Part shown: piece after piece, positions 12,022 through 28,700 of the stretch
Position numbering within the stretch: the stretch's first letter is position 1
Layout of the letters: each line of letters begins with the position of its first letter
Assembly: GCA_033763315.1 (NCBI GenBank)
Contig: JANRKS010000002.1
Coordinates: 288,001-352,000, forward strand
Length of the DNA: 64,000 nt
Direction of reading: 5' to 3'
Source: Deltaproteobacteria bacterium
GTDB taxonomy: Bacteria; Myxococcota_A; Polyangia; Fen-1088
The notes under the pieces: generated by a model
The model's database searches: none
Told to the model about the DNA's origin: nothing
The model's input: the letters and a program-made list of their open reading frames with translations, nothing else
Position numbers and translations under genes: made by a program

Positions 12022-12118
12022 CCTGCCATGTAGCGCTGCGGTTAAATGTTTCCGCATGGCCGCGGAAACGCACGCGCGGGCCTTGTCAAAGCGGCTTTGC
12101 TGCGACAGGCATTGGCTG

Positions 12119-14797
12119 ATGCCCAACAAAGATGGCGATGCTGTAGCGGAGCTTGGCACCGAAGCGGCTCCGGCGCCTTTGCGCAATGAAGTGAATACGC
12201 TGGCTCGCGCCCTGGGGCAGCAGATCCGGCGTCTGTCGGGTGCCGAAGCGTTTGCCTTGGCCGACGAAATACGCACGTGCGTCAAGGACATCCGCAAAGC
12301 GGCAGGCAGCGGAGACGCATCCCAAGCCGATGCTTTGCACCAACGCATCGCCGCGCTTTCCACCGAACGCGCCGAAGGGTTGGTGTCGGCGTTCTCGCTG
12401 TATTTTCACCTTGTCAACGTGGCTGAAGAGCGCCAGCGCGCGCGGGTGAACCACGAACGCGAGGCCAACAGCTCTGCTGATCATCCACGCCGCGAATCTT
12501 TGATGGCCATGGTGGGCACGTTGAAGCGCGATGGCTTTAGTTATCAAGAAGTGGTGGATCTGTTGTCGCGGGTGCAGTTGCACCTGACGTTCACAGCGCA
12601 CCCCACAGAAACCCGGCGCCGCACCGTTCGCCAACACATCGAACAGATCGAGCAGGCCCTGGAACGCAAGAATGACGAAGAAATCACGGCGCGCGTGGGC
12701 TTGCTGTGGGCCACGCGTGAGTTGAGACAAACGCGGCCCACGGTGGAGGATGAAGTGCGCGGCAGCCTGCATTACTTGCCGCAGGTTCTGTGGCACACGC
12801 TGCCGCGGATTGTGGACGGGCTTGAGGGCGCGGTGCTGGCGCACTATGGGCAACGCCCCACCTTGCCACCGCCGGTGGTGTTTCGCAGCTGGATTGGCGG
12901 TGACCGCGACGGCAACCCGAACGTTGTGGCCCCTGTGACCGCGTGGGCCCAGACCTATGCGCGCGAGCAGGCTCTGGATGGTTACCGCAAAGAACTGGAC
13001 GTGCTTTTGCGCGACCTGTCTGTCTCCGCCGATCGCGTGGCGATTCCGCCAGCCTTGCAGGCAAAGTTGACTGACGCTTTGGCGCGTTTGCCCGCCGAAG
13101 CGATCGTTAACGACGAACCGTTGCGCAGTTTGTGCCGGCTCATGCAACGCCGGCTTGGTGCGGGCGCGGACGCCTACGAAGACAAGCAACAACTATTCGA
13201 AGACGTGGCGTTGTTGAGCGAATCCCTGCAGGCCTTGGATCTCGGCGAAGCCACGCGATGCTTGGTGAGGCCGTTCGAGGTGCGTGCGCAAAGCTTTGGT
13301 TTGGATCTCGTCACACTTGATCTGCGTGAAGAATCACGCGCTCACACCGAAGCGGTGGCTGAGCTTTTCACGGCGGCCGGGGTCAACACTGCCTATGGAA
13401 CGTTGGATCCAGCGGCGCGAGAGGCGTTGTTGACCAATGAGTTGGCGAGCCGCCGCCCGTTGGCTCCCGTGGGCTGGAAGCCGACCACACGTGCGTTGCA
13501 AGTGGCGGTGGAAAGCTTGCGTGCGTGGAAAGCGCGCGGCGCCTACGTGGTGAGCATGACCCGATCCGCGGCTGACATGTTGGAGGTTCTGCTGCTGGCG
13601 CGCGAAGTGGGCTTATTTACGCCGGGCGAAGCTTTGCCGTTTGATGTGGTGCCGCTGTTTGAAACGCTGGCCGATTTGCAGAACGCGCCCACCACTGTGA
13701 GCCGGCTATTGTCCCAACCTGTGTTCGCCGCCCATGTCAAAGGCCGGGGCGGCTTGGAAGTCATGATTGGGTATTCCGATTCAAACAAAGACGCGGGCTT
13801 TTTGGCCGCCAACTGGGCGCTGTACCGTGCGCAAGAGGAGATCGCGGCGGAGGCCAAACGATTCGGTGTGACCGTATGGTTCTTCCACGGGCGCGGCACA
13901 TCCACGGCGCGGGGCGGTGGCAGCGCCGGTCGTGCGCTGGCCAGCTTGCCACCTGGCACAGTGGGCTACCGCATGCGGCTTACCGAGCAGGGCGAAGCCT
14001 TGGCGGATCGTTACAGCCACCCCGAGTTCGCGCACCGTCACCTTGAACAGCTGCTGTTCCATTTGAGTTTGGCGGCGGCGCGCGATGTGCGCGGGGAACA
14101 TCAAGATGTGCCCCAGGCGTGGCGGCAAGCCGTTGACGAAGCGGCCGCCACGTCCACCGCTGCGTACCGAGCGCTGCTTGCGGTGCCAGGCTTCTTTGAG
14201 TTTTACGAGCAGTTCACGCCGATTCGTGAAATCGGCGCGTTGAAGATCGCTAGCCGCCCGGTTTACCGTTCAGGCCGCGTGCGAGAGCTGCGCGATCTAC
14301 GTGCGATTCCGTGGGTGATGTCGTGGACGCAGGTGAGGTTGCCTGTGCCGTCCTTCTTTGGTGTGGCCGAGGGGTTGCGCAAACTGCCGGTGCAGCTGCG
14401 GCGGCAAATGTTGGCGCAGTGGCCGTTTTTCGCGAGCACTTTAGATAGTGCCGCCACTGCGTTGGGCAAGGCCGATCCGCTTGTGGCCAAAGAGTACTTG
14501 AGCCTTGTGGAGCCCGGTCTGGCTGAAACGTTCTATCCGCTCTTGAAGCGCGCGTTCGACGACGCACGCGATCTATTGGAAGAGACTTTCGAAGGACCGC
14601 TGTTGGCCAAACACCCAACGTTGGCGCGGCAGATTGACTTGCGAAATCCTTACGTGGATCCCATTGGTCGCATCCAGGTGGAATTGCTGCGTCGTTTGCG
14701 TGCCTGCACTCCCGACGATGCCGCGCGGCCTGGGCTTGAACGAGCGTTGATGGGGTCGTTGGTGGGCGTGGCCGCGGGGCTCCGCAACGCTGGCTAA
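12119..14797 (+). CDS. ppc: Phosphoenolpyruvate carboxylase
   Basis: TAHPTE, SWIGGDRDGNP, MIGYSDSNKDAG, FHGRG..ARGGG, TEQGE, LRAIPW, C-terminal GLRNAG. Confidence 0.96.
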   Translation: MPNKDGDAVAELGTEAAPAPLRNEVNTLARALGQQIRRLSGAEAFALADEIRTCVKDIRKAAGSGDASQADALHQRIAALSTERAEGLVSAFSLYFHLVNVAEERQRARVNHEREANSSADHPRRESLMAMVGTLKRDGFSYQEVVDLLSRVQLHLTFTAHPTETRRRTVRQHIEQIEQALERKNDEEITARVGLLWATRELRQTRPTVEDEVRGSLHYLPQVLWHTLPRIVDGLEGAVLAHYGQRPTLPPPVVFRSWIGGDRDGNPNVVAPVTAWAQTYAREQALDGYRKELDVLLRDLSVSADRVAIPPALQAKLTDALARLPAEAIVNDEPLRSLCRLMQRRLGAGADAYEDKQQLFEDVALLSESLQALDLGEATRCLVRPFEVRAQSFGLDLVTLDLREESRAHTEAVAELFTAAGVNTAYGTLDPAAREALLTNELASRRPLAPVGWKPTTRALQVAVESLRAWKARGAYVVSMTRSAADMLEVLLLAREVGLFTPGEALPFDVVPLFETLADLQNAPTTVSRLLSQPVFAAHVKGRGGLEVMIGYSDSNKDAGFLAANWALYRAQEEIAAEAKRFGVTVWFFHGRGTSTARGGGSAGRALASLPPGTVGYRMRLTEQGEALADRYSHPEFAHRHLEQLLFHLSLAAARDVRGEHQDVPQAWRQAVDEAAATSTAAYRALLAVPGFFEFYEQFTPIREIGALKIASRPVYRSGRVRELRDLRAIPWVMSWTQVRLPVPSFFGVAEGLRKLPVQLRRQMLAQWPFFASTLDSAATALGKADPLVAKEYLSLVEPGLAETFYPLLKRAFDDARDLLEETFEGPLLAKHPTLARQIDLRNPYVDPIGRIQVELLRRLRACTPDDAARPGLERALMGSLVGVAAGLRNAG

Positions 14798-15561: not shown

Positions 15562-16809
15562 ATGCCGTTGCGCCTGACGTTGGGGGTTGTATTGATGGTC
15601 GTCGCCCCTCGCGCGGCCATCGCTCAAACGATGCGCGACGCCGTGAAGGAGCACGTCAAAGACAACCTGCAAGCGCCGCCCAACCCACCGGCCCCCGATC
15701 CGGTTCCGCCCAAGAAGAAGGCCGTCAAACCGAGTGGGCCTGTGACTGGGGCCAAAGCGGGCAACCCAGACGCGACGTGGTCGTTCTCAAGCGACGAGGC
15801 CACAAGCCCGCGCATCGTGAGTGCTGTGCCGAAGCGTCCTTTAAGTCCGTGGTTGCAACTCGACCTCAAGGTGGATGGCGCCTACCGCGGCTGGCTTCCG
15901 CAGCAATACAAAAGCGCTGACGTGAAAGTGGGCGGCTATTACACGTGGAGCGTGGAGTTGCGAGGCAAGCTGTTCAAATATGTGAACCTGCACCGCGGTT
16001 ACTACGAATCCAATTCACTTGCGGCGCCGCGCACGAATGAAGCGGCGGTCGCGGCGCAGGTGGGGCAACATTTGCCGAAGGCAGCGTGGCTTTTGGCCAC
16101 CGTGGGCGTGCCCATCTCGAAAGCCTGGGAGCCCACCGTTCGTTATGAATCACGTGCGTTCAACACCAGCGCAACGCCGAGAATTCCTGTGTGCATCGTG
16201 GATAGGGGTGCTTCTGGCGATTTACAGGATTGTCCCAAGACGATGAACAAGTTGAACATCGTTTCAGGCTTCGAGACGTTTACGATGGGCGTGCGTTACA
16301 ACCACGCCAAGGCCGGCGGCCCTGTGATCCAGGATCACGCGAGCAAAATTCCTCCGGTGTTCTTTGGGCTCGGTTTGATGTCGTACACGAAGCCGTATCA
16401 GGTGACGATCAACGGCAACACGTTGCAGGACTACCTCTTCGATGGGCGGTTTCGCGGCGCGGGCCTGGCCTTGGGCACGAACCTAGGCGGCGGGGTGCGA
16501 CAGCTGTTCGTCGATGCGGATCTGCAGGTGGGCCTTGGGCAAGTGTCACTTACCAACAGCTTGACCCTCAACGAACTGACGCCGGGCGACTGGTTGATTG
16601 GCTACGCGCAAGGCAACGTGACGTGCGGCTATCGGTTTGTGTTGTTTGAAGGGCCGCCAACCATCTTTTTCACACCCGTGGCCAGCGGCGGTGGCGCGAG
16701 CTTTCACTTCGTCAAGACCAAACAGAATGCCGACGAGCCGCAACGGACGCCGAATCTGAACTGGGATTTTCTGTGGTCTGTGCGGGCCGCGATCGAGGTG
16801 GCGATCTAG
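15562..16809 (+). CDS. Exported hypothetical protein, probable outer-membrane beta-barrel
   Basis: Signal peptide, Pro-rich linker, amphipathic beta-strand pattern, ends WSVRAAIEVAI. TATAAT lies at 15548-15553. Confidence 0.6.
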   Translation: MPLRLTLGVVLMVVAPRAAIAQTMRDAVKEHVKDNLQAPPNPPAPDPVPPKKKAVKPSGPVTGAKAGNPDATWSFSSDEATSPRIVSAVPKRPLSPWLQLDLKVDGAYRGWLPQQYKSADVKVGGYYTWSVELRGKLFKYVNLHRGYYESNSLAAPRTNEAAVAAQVGQHLPKAAWLLATVGVPISKAWEPTVRYESRAFNTSATPRIPVCIVDRGASGDLQDCPKTMNKLNIVSGFETFTMGVRYNHAKAGGPVIQDHASKIPPVFFGLGLMSYTKPYQVTINGNTLQDYLFDGRFRGAGLALGTNLGGGVRQLFVDADLQVGLGQVSLTNSLTLNELTPGDWLIGYAQGNVTCGYRFVLFEGPPTIFFTPVASGGGASFHFVKTKQNADEPQRTPNLNWDFLWSVRAAIEVAI

Positions 16810-18428
16810 TTGGTGTGCTTGTTGAGGTAGGTCACGAGGGCGTCCCTGATGGCGGCCCGTTGCGCGTTTGGCGACGACGTTGGGTAATACTCCGTGATGT
16901 AGAACGAAACTGTGGCTTCTGCCGCGTCGGCACTGCAGCCACCAACTTCGACGTATCCGTAAAAATCCATTTGTTCGGGTCCCTCCGTCCAAAACGGCAA
17001 AGGAGGATCCGGAAGCCTCTTCATGACATCCGTCCAAAAGCGCAGCAATTCGAGGTGAGGCGCGGGCGCGATCATTCTTAGGTTTCCTTTGTCATCCTCG
17101 AACCGAACCGTTGGATGCTGAGGCACAAAGCGTCCGCGTAGATGGATGCGACGGCCAAACAAAGCGAACGGGTTCGTCAGCAGAGCACCGATATCGACGT
17201 CCTCCGTCGGTTCACCAAGTAGCGCTGCCAAGGGGCGCTCGCGCCATGGCAGCGGGGTGGCGGGGCGCAGGGGCACTTCCTCGAGCACAACGCCGCTTTC
17301 GTTGATGTGAACGAGGCCGGCGGCGCCGGCGGCCACCCACCAGCCTTTGTTGCCGTCGCTTGTGGCGTCCACCGCTTTGATGCCATCGAGCACAAACACC
17401 GCGCTCCCCGACCGCGTTCCCAGCAGCAGACCTTTGCGTTCGATGTATCCGCAAAGCCAACGCCCAGCGCCGTCTTCGCGAATAAACCCAACGCCTCGGC
17501 CCCACTCTTCGTTTGGCAACGTGACGGGCTCTGTTCCGATGTAGAGCTTTTGCGGCGACGCAAACAGCGGCGAGGGCTGAGAAGACGACGACACCGTGCG
17601 CACGTCGACCGCGGCGGCTGCAGGGGCGGCTTCCCAGCGGCTGCCACCGACGGTGACGTTGAGGCGGGCGGGACCAGTGGTGGCGGTGGTGGCCCAGAGG
17701 TTACCCGCGCTGTCTTTGCCCAAAGCCTTGAGGTTCTCGGGTGGCATCGAAGGAAGGCTCCACGGCGCGTCGTCCAAGCGATCGATCATGGCACCCACAA
17801 GGTGCGCCGCGCCTCCCGACACAGCGGCCAACCACACGCCACCATTTGGATCCTCCACCAGCGGCTGTCGGGCACGCTCGCCCGCGTGAACAAGCGGCGC
17901 CGCACCGAAGACGCTGAGGTTGGTGTTGGTGTCGTAAGCGTAAAGATAACCTCGGCGTGAGGTGATCCACTTCGTTCCATCGCTGCCCAAAAGCAGTGCA
18001 TGAACGCCGCTGTCTGGCACGCGTGCGTTGTAGGCATCGAAGTAAGTCCAAGCGTTGCCTTGGCGACGGAACAGGCCATGACAAGTGGTGCCAGCCCACA
18101 ACGTGCCGTTGGGTTCAAGCGCCACCGCCGTGGCCTCCGTGCCCATCAACGCAACGGCGGATGCCCCCGCTGTGAGCGCGCTCGAAAGGCTGACAGGACC
18201 AGGGGTTACAGGTGGCGCTGCCTCGGACGGACACAGATTCGCGCAGATGTTGAGCGCCGTACAGCAAGAGAAACCTTTGGCGCAAGGGCAGGGTTTGCCC
18301 TTGAGCGGCAGTGGCTCTAAGCAGCCGCCCACGCATAGGAGCGCCAGCAGGCAAACAATCCCACCCAACAACAGGGGGCCTCGCGTCGCCGCTTTACCAG
18401 CGACCAGACAATGCGAACGCAACGCCAT
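16806..18428 (-). CDS. Cys-motif lipoprotein with two-component-regulator-type beta-propeller
   Basis: Lipobox VGGC, then CPC..CC..C, then repeated 'D.NGG.W' / 'DSAGNLW' propeller blades. Start uncertain; overlaps the upstream caspase gene. Confidence 0.65.
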   Translation of the reverse strand: MALRSHCLVAGKAATRGPLLLGGIVCLLALLCVGGCLEPLPLKGKPCPCAKGFSCCTALNICANLCPSEAAPPVTPGPVSLSSALTAGASAVALMGTEATAVALEPNGTLWAGTTCHGLFRRQGNAWTYFDAYNARVPDSGVHALLLGSDGTKWITSRRGYLYAYDTNTNLSVFGAAPLVHAGERARQPLVEDPNGGVWLAAVSGGAAHLVGAMIDRLDDAPWSLPSMPPENLKALGKDSAGNLWATTATTGPARLNVTVGGSRWEAAPAAAAVDVRTVSSSSQPSPLFASPQKLYIGTEPVTLPNEEWGRGVGFIREDGAGRWLCGYIERKGLLLGTRSGSAVFVLDGIKAVDATSDGNKGWWVAAGAAGLVHINESGVVLEEVPLRPATPLPWRERPLAALLGEPTEDVDIGALLTNPFALFGRRIHLRGRFVPQHPTVRFEDDKGNLRMIAPAPHLELLRFWTDVMKRLPDPPLPFWTEGPEQMDFYGYVEVGGCSADAAEATVSFYITEYYPTSSPNAQRAAIRDALVTYLNKHTN

Positions 18429-19926
18429 CCATATGAGCATTGTCGGCAGCGCGCGGCAGTGCAAGTAGCATCCACCCTGTGGTGGCCGCACCGGCCGCTA
18501 AACCAAGCCCGATCGCCGCCGCCCATTGCAGCGTGTGGGCGCGATCGTTGAGTTTGTCGGCTCTGGCTTGATCGGTGCGAGCGTCGGCTTCATGCAACGT
18601 CACATACGCAGCTCCGAACGACAGCACGCTCGCCGCGGTCAGCGCGCCCGCCGTCCAAAATGCGGCCTTCGCAAGCGGTGGTGTTGGTTGTCTTGGAGCG
18701 GGGGGAAGGGGCTCGGCAACCGCCTGGTCACGCAGGTCAATGGCCGCGAGCTTCTGTGCACTAAATGGCAGCGCGAACAAGCTGCGGAATGCATGGTCAG
18801 CGGCGCCGCGGGCACTTGTGCGGCGCTGTTGCGGTGAAAACGCCGCCAGATTCACGACTCCATCGACGCGGCTCAACTGCACCTCTGTATCGCTGTCGTC
18901 ATCGAATACGTACAGCGTTGATGCGTTTTGCGGCCACACCAAATGCACTGCCTGGCCTTGGGCGTTGTGAAAATCAAGCACGCGAATGCCGTTGCGATCC
19001 TCAATCGCGTGGTGGGCCGACGTTGCCGTGCCCGAGACGAAGATCTGGTTGTGCAGCGCTGATCGTAGGTCTGCAAGCGTCCGCGTGTGCTCCGGTGGCA
19101 AGGCGTGAACGCGCGGGCGATAAAGTTCGTTCGCGATCGGTTCGGCCGCCAAAGCCACGAACCGCTGCAACTCCTCGTAGGTGACCAGCCCATCCAGATC
19201 CACGTCAGCGGCGCCCGCCAGGCCCGAGCGCACCAAGTGGCTGAACACGCCTGCGGCAAAGCCTTCGTATTCGAACGTTTGGGTCATGCTGCTGGTGGCA
19301 AACATCAAGCCCACGCGGCGATCCAAGGCACGCCGGGCCACCTCGCGCGCGAACGGCGACAGCGCACGCCGTTGACCTCCTGGCCCGCGCGCCTCGGTCA
19401 AGAACTGTGAATTGCAGGCATCAACGATGACGTGAAACGTATCTGCGTTCACCTTGTCAACCAGCGAAGCAAACAAGCGGCTGGCGTCCAGGCGCGCGTC
19501 CGCCAAGGTCAAAAATCCCTCCTGCGTTTGCTCGTCGCGCGCGCCGTGGCCCGCATAGATGAAATACACAACCGTTGCTTCGGAAGCCGCGCGATCGTCT
19601 GCCACGCGTTGTTTTAGCCACGTGGTGGCGGCATCGAATTCTTTCCACGTAGGTGGCTTGAGAGCATGAGCCTCCTCGAATAGCCGTTGCGTGTTTGCGT
19701 CCGGATCGGACAACGTCAACGTTTGCGCGCCCAAGGTGCGGAGCAGGGCTGTGTATTTTAAAGCGTCATCATCTGCGAACCGCAGCGGCGCAAGCCCCGC
19801 CTCGTTCGGCTGATTCACGCCGATGATCAACGCGTATGTTTTTGTGGCCGCCGGCGCGGCGAGCGCCGTGGGCTGCCAAAGGCACGCCACAAGCGGCATA
19901 AGCCACAACCAATTATTGCGTGGCAT
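18394..19926 (-). CDS. Exported caspase-like (peptidase C14) protein with C-terminal hydrophobic hairpin
   Basis: Signal peptide ending ALA, YALIIGVN, LRFADDDA, catalytic YAGHG and DACNS, ADVDLDGLVT. Two C-terminal hydrophobic helices. Confidence 0.88.
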   Translation of the reverse strand: MPRNNWLWLMPLVACLWQPTALAAPAATKTYALIIGVNQPNEAGLAPLRFADDDALKYTALLRTLGAQTLTLSDPDANTQRLFEEAHALKPPTWKEFDAATTWLKQRVADDRAASEATVVYFIYAGHGARDEQTQEGFLTLADARLDASRLFASLVDKVNADTFHVIVDACNSQFLTEARGPGGQRRALSPFAREVARRALDRRVGLMFATSSMTQTFEYEGFAAGVFSHLVRSGLAGAADVDLDGLVTYEELQRFVALAAEPIANELYRPRVHALPPEHTRTLADLRSALHNQIFVSGTATSAHHAIEDRNGIRVLDFHNAQGQAVHLVWPQNASTLYVFDDDSDTEVQLSRVDGVVNLAAFSPQQRRTSARGAADHAFRSLFALPFSAQKLAAIDLRDQAVAEPLPPAPRQPTPPLAKAAFWTAGALTAASVLSFGAAYVTLHEADARTDQARADKLNDRAHTLQWAAAIGLGLAAGAATTGWMLLALPRAADNAHMDGVAFALSGRW

Positions 19927-20701
19927 CGTCCGCCTCCCCCGCCACCGTCAGAGGGTGCGTTGCAATCTGCGCGGCACGATCCAATGTGCGCAAAGTGTGA
20001 TCGCCGCGCTGCCAAGCGGATTCGGCCTCGCGAACGTTGAGCTTCGACTTCAAGAACACAGCCACAACTTTGGCCGGCCCCGGCGCAAACGCGTGTGCCA
20101 CCGCATCGTCCATGGCGTACGTACGCTGCGGCCGGATGGCCTTCCCCGTGGGCGTTTGGCGCGCGTCGTTCCACGCAGGCTCGTACCAAAACATCTGTCC
20201 CTTGGCGTCGATAGCGAACACCATGACAAACGCAAACCCAGCGGGCGCCCGATAAGAAAGCGTCAGTTCACTCGCCTTTGTGATCACCGCTTTGGGCGCC
20301 AGCGGTTGCCGTTGATCGTTGGAGCCCACTTCATAAACGGCCAGGGCGCCGTTGTCGGTGTTGCCACGTTCACTCCAACCATCGGGCGGAGCCTGCGTTC
20401 GCTGTGATGGCGTCAACCAGAATACGCATGCCGCGGCCGCCAACGCGACTGCGCTTGCCGCCCACGCCCACGGGCGCACAACGCGTGGGGGCTTCTGTAA
20501 ATCAAGCGCCACGCGAAGCCGCTCTTTTGCGGTTGGTGCGTGCGGGGTCAATCTTGAAACGACCAGCGCGCGTTCGTAATAAGCGCTGCACGCCAAGCAG
20601 TCAGTTAGGTGCGCACGCATGCGTTGCTCCTCGGCTGCCGTCGTGCTCAAGGCAAAGTGTGCATCGATGAGTTTGGTGGCGTGGCCTTGGCTGTTGGTCA
20701 T
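19913..20701 (-). CDS. Zinc-finger anti-sigma factor (ZAS + TM + periplasmic DUF4384-like domain)
   Basis: HLTDCLAC (HxxxCxxC), TM helix, beta-rich C-terminal domain. ATGA overlap with the sigma gene. Confidence 0.8.
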   Translation of the reverse strand: MTNSQGHATKLIDAHFALSTTAAEEQRMRAHLTDCLACSAYYERALVVSRLTPHAPTAKERLRVALDLQKPPRVVRPWAWAASAVALAAAACVFWLTPSQRTQAPPDGWSERGNTDNGALAVYEVGSNDQRQPLAPKAVITKASELTLSYRAPAGFAFVMVFAIDAKGQMFWYEPAWNDARQTPTGKAIRPQRTYAMDDAVAHAFAPGPAKVVAVFLKSKLNVREAESAWQRGDHTLRTLDRAAQIATHPLTVAGEADDATQ

Positions 20702-21252
20702 GATGTTCGGCTTTCTTTCAGCATCCGACGCAGGAGGCGACGCAATTGTAGCTCTTGGTAAGCCAAAGTTGTGCGGTGCATGTTCAGGGTGGCGGCGGCA
20801 TCCCGCTGCGACAGTTGCCTTACGAAGCGCGCTTCAAAGACCTTGGCCCACTTCGCCGGGATGGCCGCGTTGATCTTTTCAAGGAAGTGGCGCGCGTCGA
20901 GCTGCGACGACAGGCGATCTTGGGCTTGCCCCTCATCATTGGGCATCGTCGATTGCGTTTCCTCCAACAGGGGCCGTTCACGCGCCACAACGCGGCGGTG
21001 GTGATCAATCGCGCGGTTACGTGCCACCACGCGAAGCCACGCGCCCAAAGAGCCACCCATAAAACTGCGCCGCAACTCGCCGCTTTCCAGCAAGGCCAGG
21101 AACACTTCGTGAACCACGGTGTCGCGATCCGCACCCTGCAACACGGTGCCTACCGCCTGCCACACATCCTCAAAGTGCCGTTCGTAGCAATCGGCCATCG
21201 CGCGCCTGTCCCCGTTATGGAACAGCGTCAGATCATCGGGATTGTGGCTCAT
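20698..21252 (-). CDS. ECF sigma-70 factor
   Basis: GDRRAM, DTVVHEVF, WLRVVARNRAIDHHR (region 2) and LSQRDAAATLNMHRTTL (region 4 HTH). Confidence 0.92.
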   Translation of the reverse strand: MSHNPDDLTLFHNGDRRAMADCYERHFEDVWQAVGTVLQGADRDTVVHEVFLALLESGELRRSFMGGSLGAWLRVVARNRAIDHHRRVVARERPLLEETQSTMPNDEGQAQDRLSSQLDARHFLEKINAAIPAKWAKVFEARFVRQLSQRDAAATLNMHRTTLAYQELQLRRLLRRMLKESRTS

Positions 21253-21320
21253 GGCGTGGTGCAGGCGCGTGCCAAGCGAGGCGTGCCACGGGTTGTTAGC
21301 GGTCCACATACAAAGACCCG

Positions 21321-21348
21321 AACGAACGAGCGCCCGCGCTTGGACGAA
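21321..21348 (-). promoter_or_regulatory. Putative ECF promoter, copy 1 (faces the sigma operon)
   Basis: Minus strand: A8-CA-TTCGTCCAAG-cgcgggcgctcg-TTCGTT. Confidence 0.65.
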
Positions 21349-21402
21349 TGTTTTTTTTCATTTTGACCTTCACCCAAGGCGCGCGCTCTGCCCAGAAAAA
21401 TC

Positions 21403-21430
21403 TTCGTCCAAGACCGCGGGCCTCTTCGTT
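21403..21430 (+). promoter_or_regulatory. Putative ECF promoter, copy 2 (faces the LamG lipoprotein)
   Basis: Plus strand: A5-TC-TTCGTCCAAG-accgcgggcctc-TTCGTT. Boxes and spacing are identical to copy 1. Confidence 0.65.
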
Positions 21431-21487
21431 TCAGTTCCAACACCACCTTGCGACGTGGTGCGCTTAAACCCGTGACTTGGAGCAACG

Positions 21488-22432
21488 ATGAAAAAGCAGA
21501 CTCTCTTGGTGAGCTTAGCGATCGCGACGAGCCTGTGGGCGGGACTCGGCTGTTCCCCCAACGGCGGCGATGATGAGCCCGTCGTCAACGGCGGTGGAAA
21601 AGCGGGCAAAGGCGGCGGCGGCATGGGTGGTGGTGCTGGCGGCAAAGGTGGTGGTGCTGGCGGCACTTCAACGTCACCGGGGGGCAGCGGCGGGGTGATA
21701 AGCGATGGCGGCGCCAGTGGTCAAGGCGGTCCTGTGGGCGGCGCCGTGGGCGACGGGCTGATTGGCTATTGGCGCTTCAACGAAGGCTCAGGCACCGGCG
21801 TCAAAGACGCCTCAGGCAAAGGCAACAATGGAACTATCTTGGCTGGTTCCATTCAGGATTCGCCCTTGGCCGCCAACCCCAAATGGATCAAGGGACGCTC
21901 CGGCCAAGGTTTGGAACTCAACGGCAAGGACGAATGGGTGAAAGTGCCCGCTTCAGAATCGATCAACGAGACGTCGACGAACGGCGGATCCGTCACGATG
22001 GCCGCGTGGGTTCAAGTCAAGAGCATCGATGCCACGGGTGAAGACTACAACTTCATCATCAGTCGCCACGAAGTTGGCACGGCCTACGAGTTGTTCGGCT
22101 TGGGCTTGGTTGCTGGAAAGGTGAGCACCAGCATTCACTTCTTCCCAGCCACGGGTGCCCAAACGGTGCCGGTGGACGGCACGTGGCATCACATTGCCGG
22201 CACCTACGATGGTATCACGCAGGTTTCATACTTAGACGGCCTGCCACAAGGCTCTTATGACAGCGGCTGGCCCGTCGCCGCCGACAACACGCCGCTCATC
22301 ATCGGCGGAAACCAAAACACAGATACCGTGAAAGAATTTTGGGATGGCGCGCTCGATGAGGTTCGCCTTTACAACCGACCGCTGACGGCGCAAGAAATCG
22401 CCGCCTTGGCCGCCGAGCCGCCTGCGCCTTAA
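21488..22432 (+). CDS. LamG/concanavalin A-like lipoprotein with Gly-rich linker
   Basis: Lipobox GLGC, Gly linker, LIGYWRFNE, WHHIAGTYDG, FWDGALDEVRLYNRPLT. Confidence 0.9.
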   Translation: MKKQTLLVSLAIATSLWAGLGCSPNGGDDEPVVNGGGKAGKGGGGMGGGAGGKGGGAGGTSTSPGGSGGVISDGGASGQGGPVGGAVGDGLIGYWRFNEGSGTGVKDASGKGNNGTILAGSIQDSPLAANPKWIKGRSGQGLELNGKDEWVKVPASESINETSTNGGSVTMAAWVQVKSIDATGEDYNFIISRHEVGTAYELFGLGLVAGKVSTSIHFFPATGAQTVPVDGTWHHIAGTYDGITQVSYLDGLPQGSYDSGWPVAADNTPLIIGGNQNTDTVKEFWDGALDEVRLYNRPLTAQEIAALAAEPPAP

Positions 22433-22440
22433 AACAAGAC

Positions 22441-23724
22441 CTATTTCGCTGGCTTCACAGCGAGCACAGGCGTGAGCAGCACTTCGATCCGCCGGTTCTT
22501 CGCAAGGTTCTTGCTTCGCGGTTTGTACTGCGAATAAGCCGCTGCGGAGATCCGGTTGGGATCGACGCCCACTTCTTCTACAAGGTAACGAACCACATTG
22601 ACGGCGCGTGCAGCCGACAATTCCCAGTTCGTCTCGAAGCCACCTTTTTTCTTCAATGGTCGGTCGTCGGTGTGGCCACCGATCACGATTTGCCGATCGG
22701 TCGTTTCTTTGAGCAGCTTGCCCACGCGCGCCAGGACGCGAAAGCCAGACAACGAAAGCTCGGCCTTGCCGCTCGGGAACATCACGTCATCGACGAGGCT
22801 CACCGAAACGCTTTTCCCAGCCGCTTCGATTTCACCTTCTTTGCTCGAGAGCAGTCCCTTGAGGGCACCGATCAACTTTTGGTCTTCGCCCGACGCTGTG
22901 TCCTTGGCGGCCACTTCGTCTTTCATCGTGGCCAACGCACGCTCTGCCTCAATACGAGCCTTTTCGGCTGCCTCGGCGCGCGTTTGTGCCTCCACCAGGC
23001 CTTGCGCTTGTTTGGCCTGAGCCGCCACAAGCTTTTCGCGATCGTCTAGGCCAAGCACAACTGCGGCCGCGAGAGCCGCGAAGCCAAGCAGCGCCATAAG
23101 CCAGCCCATACGTCCGCGCCGACGAATCGCGCGCAGGTGCGCCGACGGAATGGTTTCGGTGGCGTAGGGATCGTCGCCCGCCCGTTGAGACTTGGCCGCC
23201 GTGCGCCCGAGCAGACTGTCAGGGTTCGGTGCGCGTGCCGGCCAATCGTTGCCTTGGCCTGGCTGTTGCCCCGTGTTCTGCGCCGGGTACGCGGACACCG
23301 GCGGTGGCGCGCCGTAGGGACCCGTGTTCGGATAACCCGAGGCGGCTGGCGCTTGACTGTAGCCTTGCGCGTAACCTTGAGGTTGGCCGTATCCCTGGTT
23401 ATAAGCGGTTGCCACGGGCGGTGGCGTCGGTGGGTAAGCCGCGGCTTCGTTGTGCACCGGCAATGGCTCGGGGCTCGAAGGGGTGAGGTTGATTTCATCC
23501 CAAGGTGCCATGGCCGCAGGACCAAGTGATGAACTTGAGGGCGTTGCAGGCATCGCACGCGGCGGCGTGTATCCCGGCGCGGCCGGCGGGGTCCAACTCG
23601 GTCGCGAGGGGCTCGCTTTCACACGCCCTGCCGGCGGCGGAGGAGGTGGCGTGGGACGAGGAGGTGGCAACCCTGGCCCAGCTGACCGGGTCGAAGGGGC
23701 CTTTGGGAAGCCGGGGCCAGACAT
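22441..23724 (-). CDS. OmpA/MotB-like peptidoglycan-binding protein with Pro-rich N-terminus, TM and coiled coil
   Basis: FPSGKAEL, GHTDD, NWELSAARA, NRRIEV. Start chosen at MSGPG, 7 nt after an extended -10. Confidence 0.85.
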   Translation of the reverse strand: MSGPGFPKAPSTRSAGPGLPPPRPTPPPPPPAGRVKASPSRPSWTPPAAPGYTPPRAMPATPSSSSLGPAAMAPWDEINLTPSSPEPLPVHNEAAAYPPTPPPVATAYNQGYGQPQGYAQGYSQAPAASGYPNTGPYGAPPPVSAYPAQNTGQQPGQGNDWPARAPNPDSLLGRTAAKSQRAGDDPYATETIPSAHLRAIRRRGRMGWLMALLGFAALAAAVVLGLDDREKLVAAQAKQAQGLVEAQTRAEAAEKARIEAERALATMKDEVAAKDTASGEDQKLIGALKGLLSSKEGEIEAAGKSVSVSLVDDVMFPSGKAELSLSGFRVLARVGKLLKETTDRQIVIGGHTDDRPLKKKGGFETNWELSAARAVNVVRYLVEEVGVDPNRISAAAYSQYKPRSKNLAKNRRIEVLLTPVLAVKPAK

Positions 23725-23820
23725 GGCCCACAAGATACCACACGGAGTGCGCCAAGACAGGTCCAAATGGCCTGGGCCTCGCCGCCTTGTGTACCCGCCG
23801 CAGCGCGATTGCGCCGCCCG

Positions 23821-25685: not shown

Positions 25686-26741
25686 ATGCGCCCAACGAAT
25701 AACCTTCACGTCAAAGACTACAAACTGCTGGCGTCTCCCGCGCAGATCGTGGCCGAGATCCCCATGAGTGATGCCGCCTCCGAGACGGTGGCCACCACGC
25801 GCGAAGAAGTGCGCCGCCTCATCCACGGCGAAGATCAGCGCCTGCTGGTGGTCGTGGGCCCCTGCAGCATTCACGACCTTGGCATGGCCGAGGAATACGC
25901 CGCCTTCGTGGCGTCGGCTCGCAAAGAATATGCGTCGTCTTTGCTGATCTTGATGCGGGTCTATTTTGAGAAGCCCCGAACGACCGTGGGGTGGAAGGGG
26001 CTCATCAACGATCCGCACCTTGATGGCACCTATGATGTGGAGACGGGTTTGCGCCTCGGCCGGCGTCTGCTGGTGTCGCTCGCTGAGCGTGGCATCCCCG
26101 CCGCGTCTGAGGTCCTGGATCCGATCTCGCCGCAATACTTGGCCGAAGCGATTGCGTGGGCGGCGATCGGCGCGCGCACGGTTGAAAGCCAAACCCACCG
26201 TGAGATGGCCTCGGGCCTGTCGATGCCGATCGGCCTTAAGAACGGCACCGATGGATCACTGCAGACCGCTGTCAACGCCATGAAGTCGGCAGCGCAACCG
26301 CACCATTTTCTGGGCGTCGACTCGCATGGCCGCGTGGCCATCGTTGAAACCTCGGGCAACAAGGACACCCACTTGGTGTTGCGTGGTGGTCTGGCAGGGC
26401 CCAATTACGACGAAACGAACGTCATCAGCGCCGCAGCGGAATTAAAGAAGGGCGGCTTGCCTTCGCGGATCATGATCGATTGCAGCCACGACAACAGCCT
26501 CAAGGACTATAGCCGCCAACCCACGGTGCTCAGCGACATCGCCGCGCAGGTGAAACGTCACAACCACATCCTGGGCGTGATGATTGAATCCAACCTCGTG
26601 GCCGGCAAGCAAGCGTTTCCGCCCGCCCCAGGCGTGGCCTTGCGCCACGGTCAAAGCATCACCGACGGCTGCGTGGACTTGGACACAACGCGCACCATGC
26701 TTGACCAGCTGGCCAGCGCGCACGCAAAACGTTCCGCCTAA
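25686..26741 (+). CDS. Class I (AroF/G/H-type) DAHP synthase
   Basis: GPCSIHD, RVYFEKPRTTVGWKGL, IGARTVESQ, DCSHDNS, SITDGC. Confidence 0.95.
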   Translation: MRPTNNLHVKDYKLLASPAQIVAEIPMSDAASETVATTREEVRRLIHGEDQRLLVVVGPCSIHDLGMAEEYAAFVASARKEYASSLLILMRVYFEKPRTTVGWKGLINDPHLDGTYDVETGLRLGRRLLVSLAERGIPAASEVLDPISPQYLAEAIAWAAIGARTVESQTHREMASGLSMPIGLKNGTDGSLQTAVNAMKSAAQPHHFLGVDSHGRVAIVETSGNKDTHLVLRGGLAGPNYDETNVISAAAELKKGGLPSRIMIDCSHDNSLKDYSRQPTVLSDIAAQVKRHNHILGVMIESNLVAGKQAFPPAPGVALRHGQSITDGCVDLDTTRTMLDQLASAHAKRSA

Positions 26742-27499
26742 ACCCGCAGGCCAGACCAGCCGCCCGTGCGCAGTTGTGCCTCGGCGTGGCTGCGTTCGTC
26801 GGGCGTATCCACTTCCAACCAGCCGTGACCGCTGATGTCGCGGCAGTGCGGCGGGGTGCTTGTGCGTGCCAAACGAGCCAGCACACGCTCGACGTGAATG
26901 TCGAGGCCATCTTGCGCCATCGCCGCGTCCACTTCAGCCAGGTAGCGGGCGCGCGCCCCGCCGGGAACGCGGGTCATGCCCACGTAGCCGCAGTCGAAGG
27001 TGGTGAGCGTCTTCGCGATCTCGGCGATGCGGCCGCGGTCATCGCGCAGCACCTTCATGTCATCGTTGCCCAAAGACCGATCGGTGTCGATGAAGCCAGT
27101 GACGTCATCAACGGCGGCGGTCACCACACGGGCGATGGCAGGCCGATAGATGTGGTCGACGTTCAGCAGCACAAAATCATCCGTGAGGTGGGGCCGCGCC
27201 GCCTGGAAGGAGAGGATGTTGCCGCGACGAAATTCCGTGTTGCGCACAAGTTCGATGGGCAAACCGGCAGCTGAGCCTTCAGACAATGCGCCGAGCGTGC
27301 TTTGCACTTGGTCGAACTCGAAGCCGCCCACGACGATGATCTTGCGGGGCGAGAGCAAGCGCGCGAACGCCAACCCGTAAGCCAACAGGGGACTGCCGTT
27401 CACAGCGATCAAAGCCTTCGGCAGGCTGCGCGTGAGATCTCCCAAGCGGCTGCCGAGGCCGGCCGCCATCAACACCACGTCAAGTGCGGCCACGCTCAC
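26738..27499 (-). CDS. NTP-transferase, LicC/phosphocholine cytidylyltransferase-like
   Basis: MAAGLGSRL..PKAL, DDMKV, WLEVDT. Overlaps the HAD gene stop codon. Confidence 0.8.
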   Translation of the reverse strand: MSVAALDVVLMAAGLGSRLGDLTRSLPKALIAVNGSPLLAYGLAFARLLSPRKIIVVGGFEFDQVQSTLGALSEGSAAGLPIELVRNTEFRRGNILSFQAARPHLTDDFVLLNVDHIYRPAIARVVTAAVDDVTGFIDTDRSLGNDDMKVLRDDRGRIAEIAKTLTTFDCGYVGMTRVPGGARARYLAEVDAAMAQDGLDIHVERVLARLARTSTPPHCRDISGHGWLEVDTPDERSHAEAQLRTGGWSGLRV

Positions 27500-28224
27500 A
27501 TGCCTGCGGCGGAGGCCACGTTCCAGAACAAGCTGGGGATGTCGCCAAAACGATCCACCACAGGATGCTTCGGAAACTTCAACATGAAGCGCTCGCGCGA
27601 GAAGGTGCCGGCCACGCCGATGAAGCGCAGGTTTTCAACTTCGGCGATGTCGCCATCGTGAAGCGAATCGCCCACGAACATCAAATCCTCGCGAGCCACA
27701 CCAAAGTGTTTCATCGCCAGTTCCACGTGCGCCTTGCCTTTGGCCAAGCCATTGCCGTAGCCCAAGGCCAAGTCAAATGGGAACGGGTTGTGCTTGATGA
27801 AGGTGTTAACGTTTTCGGTGCCGTTGTTTGACGAAACCACCACGCGAACACCGCGTGAGCGCATTTCTTCCAGGGCCAAGCGCGTGTCGGCGGACAGCTT
27901 GGCGGTGCTGCAGCGGGCGGGCTTGGCAGCCTCGAACCGATCGGACGCCGCTTGGTTGCGGGCGTCGCCTGGGCAAATCACGTCCAGCTGGCGGATGAAG
28001 GGAAGGCCACATGTGGCGAGGTACATGTCCCGGGCCAGGCCACGGTCCATCCCGTACATCTCTTCAAGCACCTCGGTGGCCAAGTCGGCCAAAACCGGCA
28101 TCGTGTCGATGAGCGTTCCATCCAGGTCGCAAAGGATGACCTTGGGAGCCGCAAGGCGAGGCGAAACCGCGCGGGACACCCGGCGAGGCGTGGAGCTGAA
28201 AGCGGCAGGAACCTGGATGTCCAT
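27496..28224 (-). CDS. HAD-superfamily phosphatase
   Basis: DLDGTLID, SSN, K, GDSLHD motifs. Confidence 0.88.
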   Translation of the reverse strand: MDIQVPAAFSSTPRRVSRAVSPRLAAPKVILCDLDGTLIDTMPVLADLATEVLEEMYGMDRGLARDMYLATCGLPFIRQLDVICPGDARNQAASDRFEAAKPARCSTAKLSADTRLALEEMRSRGVRVVVSSNNGTENVNTFIKHNPFPFDLALGYGNGLAKGKAHVELAMKHFGVAREDLMFVGDSLHDGDIAEVENLRFIGVAGTFSRERFMLKFPKHPVVDRFGDIPSLFWNVASAAGM

Positions 28225-28256: not shown

Positions 28257-28385
28257 TATGCCCCAGGTAGAGATAAGTGTCTAAAAAGACATCAATTTGC
28301 CACAATCACACGTGGCAGAAAGGCTTACAGGTGGTGAACTTTCACCATCTCAAGTGTTCAAAACCAAACGCCGATGTGCCCGGGC

Positions 28386-28700
28386 ATGGACGAACAGGTG
28401 CGGCAGCAGGCGAAAGCAAAGCTTGGTGGGTTGATTGCCAAGGTGCTTGAAGACGGCGTGATTGACGCCGGTGAACGCGAATCCCTTCAAGGTTTTTTTC
28501 GGGACGCGCTCTTAACGGTCAGTGATGTGAAGGCCGTCTATTTGGACTCCGTTGGAGCCCTCCAGGCCGAAGTTTTGGCCGACGGCGTGGTCACGGCCGA
28601 GGAAGCCCGGCGCTGCAAGTTGGTGGTGGAACAGTTGCGCATCCCCCTGCGCATGTTGCCGCCCGAGATGGTTGCCATCGTCACGGGTCAAAAACCGTAG
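28386..28700 (+). CDS. Small TerB-like helical protein
   Basis: Internal duplication DGVIDAGE / DGVVTAEE. Confidence 0.6.
   Translation: MDEQVRQQAKAKLGGLIAKVLEDGVIDAGERESLQGFFRDALLTVSDVKAVYLDSVGALQAEVLADGVVTAEEARRCKLVVEQLRIPLRMLPPEMVAIVTGQKP

Follow-up and report, generated by a model that had tools for sequence, protein, structure and literature searches.

A conserved myxobacterial cassette of ECF sigma factor, zinc-type anti-sigma factor, caspase-like protease and cysteine-module lipoprotein genes: a candidate site-1 proteolysis module

Sigma factors of extracytoplasmic function (ECF) form a major route of signal transduction in bacteria, yet only a minority have a known signal and a known first proteolytic step. 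Myxobacteria have such factors by the dozen. Anti-sigma factors under regulated intramembrane proteolysis include RsiW of Bacillus subtilis, with PrsW and RasP, and RseA of Escherichia coli, with DegS and RseP. The site-1 enzymes of these systems, PrsW (a metalloprotease) and DegS (a serine protease), are not co-encoded with each sigma factor. Here, we describe a cassette from a member of the Myxococcota (Deltaproteobacteria bacterium, assembly GCA_033763315.1) in which genes for an ECF sigma factor, an anti-sigma factor, a caspase-like protease and a lipoprotein follow one another. It lies in a 64,000-nucleotide stretch (contig JANRKS010000002.1, positions 288,001 to 352,000), referred to below as the window.

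Several described systems place a caspase-family protein beside a sigma factor. Myxococcus xanthus DdvA is a dimerising anti-sigma factor of ~990 residues with a fused periplasmic TPR-CHAT region (PMC11506125). Its study proposes that CHAT-mediated autoproteolysis makes the site-1 cut in the juxtamembrane linker ahead of RseP, a step that could not be demonstrated, and shows RseP-dependent loss of DdvA lacking its periplasmic domain (PMC11506125). In M. xanthus DK1622, four of five metacaspases are recorded in operons with sigma-70-family factors, and the same survey lists sigma/metacaspase operons from Anaeromyxobacter, Haliangium, Sorangium, Ralstonia and Fibrobacter (Asplund-Samuelsson et al. 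2012, PMC3501461). In two cytoplasmic systems, a caspase-family protease frees or cuts a protein related to sigma factors. The Csx29/Csx30/RpoE type III CRISPR system forms a cytoplasmic caspase-family link to a sigma factor, some Csx30 C-terminal domains being DUF4384 (10.1101/2022.08.17.504292), and Haliangium PCaspase, a myxobacterial Peptidase C14, cuts the putative sigma factor PCc-sigma (10.1101/2023.06.23.546230). An earlier sequence-only reading of the window had mentioned similar gene orders in other myxobacteria and cited the Csx29 system; it lacked the 2012 operons (PMC3501461), DdvA (PMC11506125) and PCaspase (10.1101/2023.06.23.546230). With DdvA and the caspase examples, control of a sigma factor by a caspase-like domain in the periplasm had thus been proposed before. 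Neither caspase nor C14 appears in the main text of the ECF reclassification paper (Casas-Pastor 2021), whose supplement has a passage on ECF25/DUF4384. In the literature outside subscription-only papers no mechanistic study of the cassette was found beyond the 2012 note of co-occurrence.

The five genes concerned were found by the sequence-only reading and verified at their coordinates against the open reading frames and their translations, gene finding in the window being based on a GC3-GC2 score:
20698-21309, minus strand: ECF sigma gene (P0001), given as the longest open reading frame; the true start is probably Met20, near nucleotide 21252.
19913-20701, minus strand: gene for a predicted single-pass anti-sigma factor of the zinc-binding anti-sigma (ZAS) type (P0002), from HxxxCxxC, an RsiW profile match and a structure model.
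18394-19926, minus strand: gene for a C14 (meta/paracaspase-like) protease (P0003), predicted to be exported and membrane-anchored, from PF00656 and Foldseek.
16806-18440 (open reading frame from GTG at 18491), minus strand: propeller lipoprotein gene (P0004), from Reg_prop, lipobox and Cys motif.
21488-22432, plus strand: LamG lipoprotein gene (P0005), from PF13385 (Laminin_G_3) at E 1.4e-23.
Consecutive minus-strand genes, in the order sigma, anti-sigma, protease, lipoprotein, overlap by 4, 14 and at least 47 nucleotides, and the LamG gene is divergent. Domain searches agree with the open reading frames and translations, so the overlapping four-gene operon with its divergent LamG neighbour stands as first described.

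This arrangement is conserved. An alignment of 32 protease relatives was used to choose the 80 best loci from 237 stretches encoding relatives, with one genome per species, and the window proteins were compared with all six-frame open reading frames of these loci (L numbers below). Lineages named in the records are myxobacterial or 'delta-proteobacterial', and include M. xanthus, Archangium, Hyalangium, Pyxidicoccus and Labilithrix. Homologues of the sigma factor, anti-sigma factor and protease occupy one strand, in that order, in 74 of the 80 loci, and the linkage is therefore not a matter of chance. The sequence-only reading had asked for such a neighbourhood survey and would have given way if linkage were absent; conserved linkage is what the survey returned. 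Five of the remaining loci (L006, L009, L045, L058, L066) are truncated, their contigs stopping within the anti-sigma or protease gene or immediately ahead of it, and only L022 has neither regulator in the 7.9 kb upstream of its protease gene. With starts chosen heuristically, the sigma and anti-sigma genes share 4 nucleotides in 60 of 69 cases, and the anti-sigma and protease genes do so in 45 of 77.

Judged by a shared assembly prefix, four assemblies carry two separate copies of the cassette each (L022 and L040; L030 and L065; L036 and L080; L075 and L079), and such multiplicity agrees with the four operons described from M. xanthus DK1622 (PMC3501461). In contigs of metagenome-assembled genomes some genes appear split or merged: the protease lies in two open reading frames at L052:6823-9524 and the anti-sigma factor in two at L060:6739-7863, either as assembly errors or as decayed copies.

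P0001 scores above the cutoffs of PF04542 (Sigma70_r2; 25.4 bits, cutoff 24, E 1.3e-5), PF07638 (Sigma70_ECF; 21.4 bits, cutoff 21.1) and TIGR02937 (50.4 bits, cutoff 42.9), and is assigned on these matches to the ECF (group 4) sigma-70 factors, the class with only sigma-2 and sigma-4 regions. It has the co-encoded anti-sigma gene (4-nucleotide overlap) and the bipartite upstream motif by which ECF factors with a cognate partner and an autoregulated promoter are recognised; use of the promoter is predicted. Alignment with homologues begins only at query residue ~17-29. Just 12 nucleotides separate the end of the predicted -10 element from the first ATG, so the start is probably Met20 (~nucleotide 21252), and the first 19 codons of the longest open reading frame (21252-21309, minus strand) are probably not translated.

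The partner, P0002, carries HLTDCLAC, an instance of HxxxCxxC, in an N-terminal helical domain, and by this signature is classed as a zinc-binding (ZAS, class I) anti-sigma factor. H15, H31, C35 and C38 are conserved in at least 90% of 38 anti-sigma sequences. Used as a profile, these 38 orthologues match B. subtilis RsiW in its solved anti-sigma domain (5wuq_C, E 4.7e-5); the match to the corresponding domain of M. xanthus DdvA (8rlz_A, E 0.055) is marginal. The zf-HC2 family is matched by 20 of the 38, with the window protein alone giving a weak match (E 0.033).

The structure model of P0002 (262 residues; mean predicted local distance difference test score, pLDDT, 83.7) contains: cytoplasmic helices at 2-65; a helix at 77-95, taken as the transmembrane span (hydropathy over 19 residues peaks at 1.8, from residue 79); a linker at 98-116 with pLDDT below 50, predicted to be disordered; and a confident beta-sandwich at 120-253, predicted to be periplasmic. 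The zinc-type motif, transmembrane helix and periplasmic domain read from the sequence at first are thus all recovered. Foldseek returned only generic immunoglobulin (Ig)-like sandwiches for this protein (best E 1.2e-3, template-modelling (TM) score at most 0.31). In a language-model and structure atlas, the sandwich lies near DUF4384-bearing clusters (TM score 0.65-0.79), one of them a Fibrobacterota cluster with zf-HC2 plus DUF4384. By sequence, membership of DUF4384 (PF14326) was rejected, with 12.8 bits for P0002 against a cutoff of 27 (E 0.13) and no match in the 38 orthologues at E <=0.01. Since the sequence match is below threshold, the likeness is a lead only.

Within the linker, predicted to be disordered, lies a conserved motif:
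20363-20380, minus strand: GWSERG (GFxARG in the family consensus), with a candidate site-1 cut after Arg112; translation checked.
Among the 38 anti-sigma factors the motif reads G (27/38), F (31/38), a variable position, A (27/38), R (38/38) and G (37/38). R112 and G113 are the last two of these, and the linker around them is gapped and variable in length and sequence. In a wider set, 64 of 72 orthologues have a strict GFxARG-type pattern, and four of the eight misses have ARG or PRG instead. The Arg-Gly pair sits ~15 residues outside the predicted membrane span.

The protease that accompanies this linker matches Peptidase_C14 (PF00656) at E 1.4e-10 (41.7 bits, cutoff 21.4), and its catalytic residues are in place:
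19414-19548, minus strand: catalytic stretch from His127 (GHG) to Asp169-Ala-Cys171 (DAC); translation checked.
H127, D169 and C171 are invariant in the alignment of 32 relatives, and none of the 80 loci lacks the catalytic or S1-type motifs. In the structure model (mean pLDDT 81.1), a caspase domain at 28-262 is followed by a beta-sandwich at 272-360, short helices at 375-401 and a long helical hairpin at 417-445 and 453-489. The best solved Foldseek match is the caspase-Ig3 structure of MALT1 (4i1p_C, E 5.7e-8), with probability 1.00 to MALT1 and metacaspases; further matches are metacaspases of yeast, Candida glabrata, Trypanosoma brucei and Arabidopsis (range to E 1e-5) and Geobacter GSU0716. 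From the modelled caspase fold and the His-Gly...Cys dyad, P0003 is assigned to peptidase family C14 (clan CD). The NCBIfam model 'caspase, EACC1-associated type' was rejected (21.7 bits, cutoff 140).

An N-terminal signal peptide is predicted for P0003, and the two C-terminal helices are hydrophobic, with 19-residue hydropathy means of ~1.1-2.4 across the 32 relatives and at least 1.5 in most. The enzyme is therefore predicted to be periplasmic and tethered to the inner membrane. The signal peptide and intact dyad had been recognised from the sequence alone and hold up, H127 and C171 being invariant; the two hydrophobic helices, seen in the model and in hydropathy, were missing from that description. 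The last residue of the protease (C-terminus at 18394-18460, minus strand) is Phe or Trp in 29 of 32 relatives (...GRF, ...GRW, ...SF). This tail is a short strand-like stretch after the second hydrophobic helix, modelled at low confidence, and it recalls the C-terminal aromatic residue that is a signature of outer-membrane proteins.

A second set of invariant residues bears on specificity. According to a structural review of clan CD, Arg specificity is governed by acidic residues at helix alpha-1 and at loop L4: D365 (alpha-1) and D462 (L4), plus E500, in MALT1; and D95 (alpha-1) and D211 (L4) in the S1 pocket of TbMCA2 (PMC4357240). In P0003 and its relatives, an invariant D169 stands two residues ahead of the catalytic Cys, and the D52-D54 triplet, also invariant, lies where helix 1 starts. 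D462 of MALT1 and D211 of TbMCA2 presumably have the same spacing to their own catalytic Cys. Judged by motif and by place in the secondary structure, D52-D54 and D169 would correspond to the acidic S1 signature of Arg/Lys-specific meta/paracaspases (C14B).

The caspase domain ends in an EF-hand-like loop (DxDxDG...E; residues 239-268, nucleotides 19120-19210, minus strand) that aligns with loops of solved calcium-binding proteins (E 1.5e-6) and, by a strict pattern, recurs in 75 of the 80 loci. These EF-hand loops were all that the protease-family profile matched among PDB sequences; no caspase was returned. A complex prediction for the caspase (25-410) with the anti-sigma factor (97-262), both entered as alignments and run without controls, scored 0.01 and 0.19, the mark being 0.32, and counts neither way on binding.

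The fourth gene encodes a protein with a Reg_prop (beta-propeller) match and a C-terminal domain of unknown family. Its start is at the ATG at 18440 or 18428, in place of the GTG at 18491 that opens the open reading frame; the ATG at 18440 overlaps the 3' end of the caspase gene. Close to the predicted lipid anchor the protein carries a compact cysteine element:
18231-18323, minus strand: CPC module, made up of lipobox Cys57, 10 residues and the six-Cys motif CPCAKGFSCCTALNICANLC (C68-C87); from the translation.
Lipidation is predicted from the lipoboxes, in which LLCVGG precedes the Cys in P0004 and WAGLG precedes it in P0005. With the Reg_prop match, Cys57 and the motif at C68-C87, the first description of P0004 as a Cys-motif propeller lipoprotein is borne out.

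What these lipoproteins share across the loci is a signal peptide with Cys at its end and, after it, a motif of the form (E/D)x(R/K)P-CPCxxGWxCCxxxNxCVxxGxxC. P0004 matches many otherwise different downstream proteins over its residues ~45-100 only; the conserved six-Cys module forms the first ~30 mature residues and the remainder is variable. Strong full-length homologues of P0004 lie downstream of the caspase gene in L001 and L002. Among 45 co-directional genes just downstream of the protease, Pfam matches include Reg_prop, Beta_propel, RCC1, Kelch, PD40, LamG and VWA, with FG-GAP plus fn3 in the ~1050-1300-residue proteins of Myxococcus and Pyxidicoccus loci (including M. xanthus L018) and an ABC ATPase in one locus; 24 of the 45 have no Pfam match. 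Look-alikes of the P0004 propeller carry annotations as ligand-binding sensor domains in histidine kinases and diguanylate cyclases; their scores are below the confidence line, so that they only support the Reg_prop assignment.

A regular expression for the six-Cys motif matches in 65 of 80 loci, a count that includes a match in L074 and a second match in L040 that look spurious and a minus-strand match in L044 near a contig end. L012 and L065 have a variant with one Cys fewer, outside the expression. Nor does the expression match any six-frame open reading frame of the window, P0004 included, because the spacing from CC to C in P0004 exceeds the pattern limit. In most loci the motif starts 72-313 nucleotides past the protease stop codon. 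The Cys-module gene lies just before the sigma gene in five loci (L032, L038, L039, L048, L049), in all of which the caspase stays beside the anti-sigma factor, and between the anti-sigma and protease genes in L047 and L078. The counts out of 64 given here are based on the plus-strand Cys-motif genes that passed the filter. In 52 of these the distance from the preceding Cys to the motif is exactly 10 residues (range 8-12), a loose lipobox pattern is present in 46, and all 64 have a Cys behind a hydrophobic stretch. A tandem pair of Cys-module lipoprotein genes, both with a promoter motif of their own, occurs at L051:7277-11832. The translation of the LamG protein P0005 contains no CPC module, and its identification as TafC was rejected (38 bits, cutoff 410).

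The genes also appear to be joined by a promoter. A dyad-enrichment count over 70 sigma-upstream regions found GTCCA-N16-CGTT in 43 of them and in no shuffles, with the extended consensus TTCGTCCA-N16-(T)CGTT. The strict form GTCCA-N15-17-CGTT, with a background of 0.016 per 300 nucleotides, stands upstream of 45 of 71 sigma genes and before 30 of the 64 Cys-module lipoprotein genes, 125-219 nucleotides ahead of the Cys motif. The window holds three exact copies of TCGTCCA-N16-CGTT, where 0.05 are expected:
21321-21347, minus strand: predicted ECF-type operon promoter, exact match before the sigma gene.
21404-21430, plus strand: second exact copy, 58 nucleotides upstream of the LamG gene.
28367-28393, minus strand: third exact copy, 143 nucleotides upstream of a HAD hydrolase gene, an uncertain regulon member.
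P0005 is predicted to be a regulon member, and in the two closest loci, L001 and L002, a divergent LamG gene likewise has the promoter motif on its strand. After the third site come genes for a HAD-family hydrolase (27496-28224, minus strand) and a MobA-like/nucleotidyl transferase (26738-27499, minus strand), a pair that may be a further regulon member. A small plus-strand open reading frame at 28374-28700, an alternative call, overlaps this site.

Taken together, these features lead us to propose, tentatively and with slightly less than even confidence, that the cassette is a surface-signalling module built on a lipoprotein, with the site-1 cut of the anti-sigma factor made by the membrane-anchored caspase. 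The sequence of events would involve: retention of the sigma factor at the inner membrane by the anti-sigma factor at rest; capture of a signal by the variable domain of the lipoprotein and its relay through the conserved Cys module, with calcium at the EF-hand loop as another possible input; activation of the membrane-anchored protease; and cleavage of the anti-sigma factor after the invariant Arg of GFxARG, in the disordered linker ~15 residues outside the membrane. The short stub would then be cleared by an RseP-type site-2 protease encoded outside the operon. The freed sigma factor would transcribe from TTCGTCCA-N16-CGTT promoters: those of its own operon, of the Cys-module lipoprotein gene and, in this genome, of the LamG lipoprotein gene. 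Positive feedback would result.

An Arg-specific tethered protease and an invariant Arg-Gly close to the membrane fit site-1 cleavage. The sequence-only reading had suggested that the caspase is a dedicated site-1 protease or sensor for its own anti-sigma factor; the Arg-Gly linker, the acidic S1 signature and the predicted membrane anchoring support the protease part indirectly. We infer the topology, the Arg specificity, the anti-sigma cleavage, the site-2 role, the lipoprotein sensor role and the calcium role. The further suggestion of that reading, that the lipoproteins serve as ligand sensor and output, is partly supported: the sigma-type promoter stands before the LamG gene and, in other loci, before 30 of 64 Cys-motif genes, and the propeller of P0004 is of the Reg_prop ligand-sensor type.

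Several points weigh against the proposal. The S1 residues are placed by motif and by secondary structure, and the invariant Arg-Gly could serve another protease or a structural contact. Anti-sigma profile searching returned 3394 cluster representatives at E <=0.001 (669 at E <=1e-30); the best 150 of the 3394 are all 225-318 residues long, with no fused form and none above 318 residues, and no anti-sigma-caspase fusion was found among longer proteins, which is weak evidence. At L022:7935-10582 a protease gene is followed by a Cys-module RCC1-repeat gene, and this orphan pair indicates that the protease can exist apart from the switch. (Upstream in L022 are an ABC-F-like ATPase gene and, on the opposite strand, a Pro/Ala-rich membrane-protein open reading frame.) Eight loci with at least 4 kb downstream have no Cys-module gene that could be found (L024, L026, L059, L060, L066, L068, L070, L080), so the lipoprotein is not an obligatory sensor everywhere, unless encoded elsewhere. 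The sigma-type promoter that about half of the lipoprotein genes have of their own fits an output as well as a sensor.

A broader form of the proposal gives the lipoproteins a more specific task. Here, the six-Cys module, at its fixed distance from the lipid anchor, would be a universal adaptor that plugs unrelated extracytoplasmic binding domains, such as propellers, FG-GAP/fn3 arrays, RCC1, LamG and VWA, into one caspase-gated sigma switch, with ligand capture by the lipoprotein leading to the protease and on to the cut between Arg and Gly of GFxARG; the several paralogous copies in a myxobacterial genome would each be tuned to a ligand. We regard this form as unlikely. It would amount to an envelope-located bacterial counterpart of receptor-triggered para/metacaspase signalling.

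The alternative that survives best, although it too is improbable, is that the protease matures or sheds exported regulon products (the Cys-module or LamG lipoprotein), while the anti-sigma factor senses by other means, such as its beta-sandwich or zinc site. This would account for a lipoprotein gene directly downstream of the caspase in most loci and often under the same promoter type as the sigma gene, and for L022, which keeps caspase and Cys-module gene without sigma or anti-sigma factor. A basic residue, Arg, Lys or His, mostly precedes the CPC motif (RP 28, RA 5, HP 5, KP 3, KS 3; n=64), but the residue that follows it is usually Pro, a poor P1' residue for trypsin-like cleavage. Only 2 of 64 lipoproteins have a GFxARG-like site in the 120 residues that follow the Cys motif. 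Also against this alternative, the caspase stays with the anti-sigma factor in the five loci where gene order has changed, and the eight loci listed above have room for a Cys-module gene and lack one.

The protease may instead act on the switch in some way other than activation, as a co-sensor or protector at the anti-sigma sandwich, or by cutting a third protein or itself for reset. RseB, which protects RseA, offers an analogy. An Ig-like beta-sandwich is modelled near the membrane in both the anti-sigma factor and the protease, and the anti-sigma sandwich has the resemblance to DUF4384-bearing clusters noted above, one that its subthreshold sequence match does not reinforce. The dyad and S1 residues are invariant in 80 of 80 loci, which argues for catalysis over scaffolding and makes this explanation a doubtful one. 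Least probable by far is a cell-death or anti-phage effector module like craspase, Haliangium PCaspase or gasdermin-activating proteases: caspase-family proteases are linked to sigma factors in Myxococcota defence loci and P0003 weakly matches the PADLOC 'caspase' model (E 9e-8), but its signal peptide would place its action outside the cytoplasm, the five window proteins have no other PADLOC match, Pfam scans of the neighbours show no CRISPR, CBASS, SAVED or gasdermin partner, and the scanned flanks are housekeeping genes.

Those flanks are a phosphoenolpyruvate (PEP) carboxylase gene (12056-14797, plus strand; E 2.7e-227) and an OmpA-family protein gene (22441-23766, minus strand; E 3.6e-16). 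The window has 62% G+C and the region is even, at 0.58-0.66, with no sign of a foreign island. A 415-residue open reading frame without Pfam match (15562-16809, plus strand) converges on P0004, with 4 nucleotides in common with its stop, and L001 and L002 have a convergent gene of 432 and 434 residues, respectively, at the equivalent position.

The co-occurrence of sigma factors with metacaspases and the ECF switch under regulated proteolysis are already known. A separate, exported and membrane-anchored C14 enzyme with a tagged, variable lipoprotein family appears to be undescribed, and the GFxARG linker motif, the putative acidic S1 signature, the fixed six-Cys lipoprotein module and the common predicted promoter are added here. 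The cassette is common, with 669 anti-sigma cluster representatives at the stricter threshold and 237 stretches with caspase relatives. If the site-1 proposal is true, this would be the first dedicated caspase-family site-1 protease for an anti-sigma factor. It would also back the site-1 proposal made for DdvA and give most myxobacterial 'metacaspases' a physiological role other than death. The anatomy names a candidate scissile bond, catalytic Cys, reporter promoter and lipoprotein tag.

Among studied systems, DdvS/DdvA is the closest counterpart and shares with the cassette a Myxococcota ECF sigma factor, a zinc-type single-pass anti-sigma factor and a periplasmic caspase-fold His/Cys module. 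Unlike in DdvA, the protease here stands alone as a C14 protein: it has its own signal peptide, an Ig-like domain and a predicted membrane hairpin, and no TPRs. P0002, with 262 residues and a beta-sandwich only, is not a TPR-CHAT anti-sigma factor of the DdvA type. The DdvS regulon is described there as a CBASS/CRISPR defence island, whereas the predicted targets here are lipoprotein genes. The sigma/metacaspase operons of 2012 very probably represent the same gene arrangement; the operon section of that survey records co-occurrence only, and within it no anti-sigma factor, cleavage motif, lipoprotein module, promoter or mechanism is given.

The Csx29 and PCaspase systems are cytoplasmic, triggered by RNA or nucleotides and placed in defence loci, in contrast to a cassette that is predicted to act through an exported, membrane-anchored enzyme and has no CRISPR or CBASS genes nearby. 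Nor is P0003 a type III-E craspase (a cytoplasmic TPR-CHAT protease bound to Cas7-11): it has a signal peptide, is C14 and not CHAT, and no PADLOC or CRISPR partner was found for it. The DUF4384 described for some Csx30 proteins is the fold that the cassette anti-sigma sandwich resembles.

As in the RsiW and RseA systems, a single-pass anti-sigma factor has a zinc-type N-terminal domain, and a membrane site-1 protease is expected to trim its extracytoplasmic part; the difference is that the enzyme here is a clan CD cysteine protease encoded in nearly every copy of the operon. In FecA/FecR/FecI, the receptor is both sensor and sigma target, and joins a conserved N-terminal signalling piece to a variable ligand part. 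No FecR-domain or TonB-dependent-receptor Pfam match was found in the five window proteins, which are thus not a FecIR system. The logic of the cassette nevertheless resembles that of FecA/FecR/FecI, and a lipoprotein with a six-Cys module would take the place of the TonB-dependent receptor.

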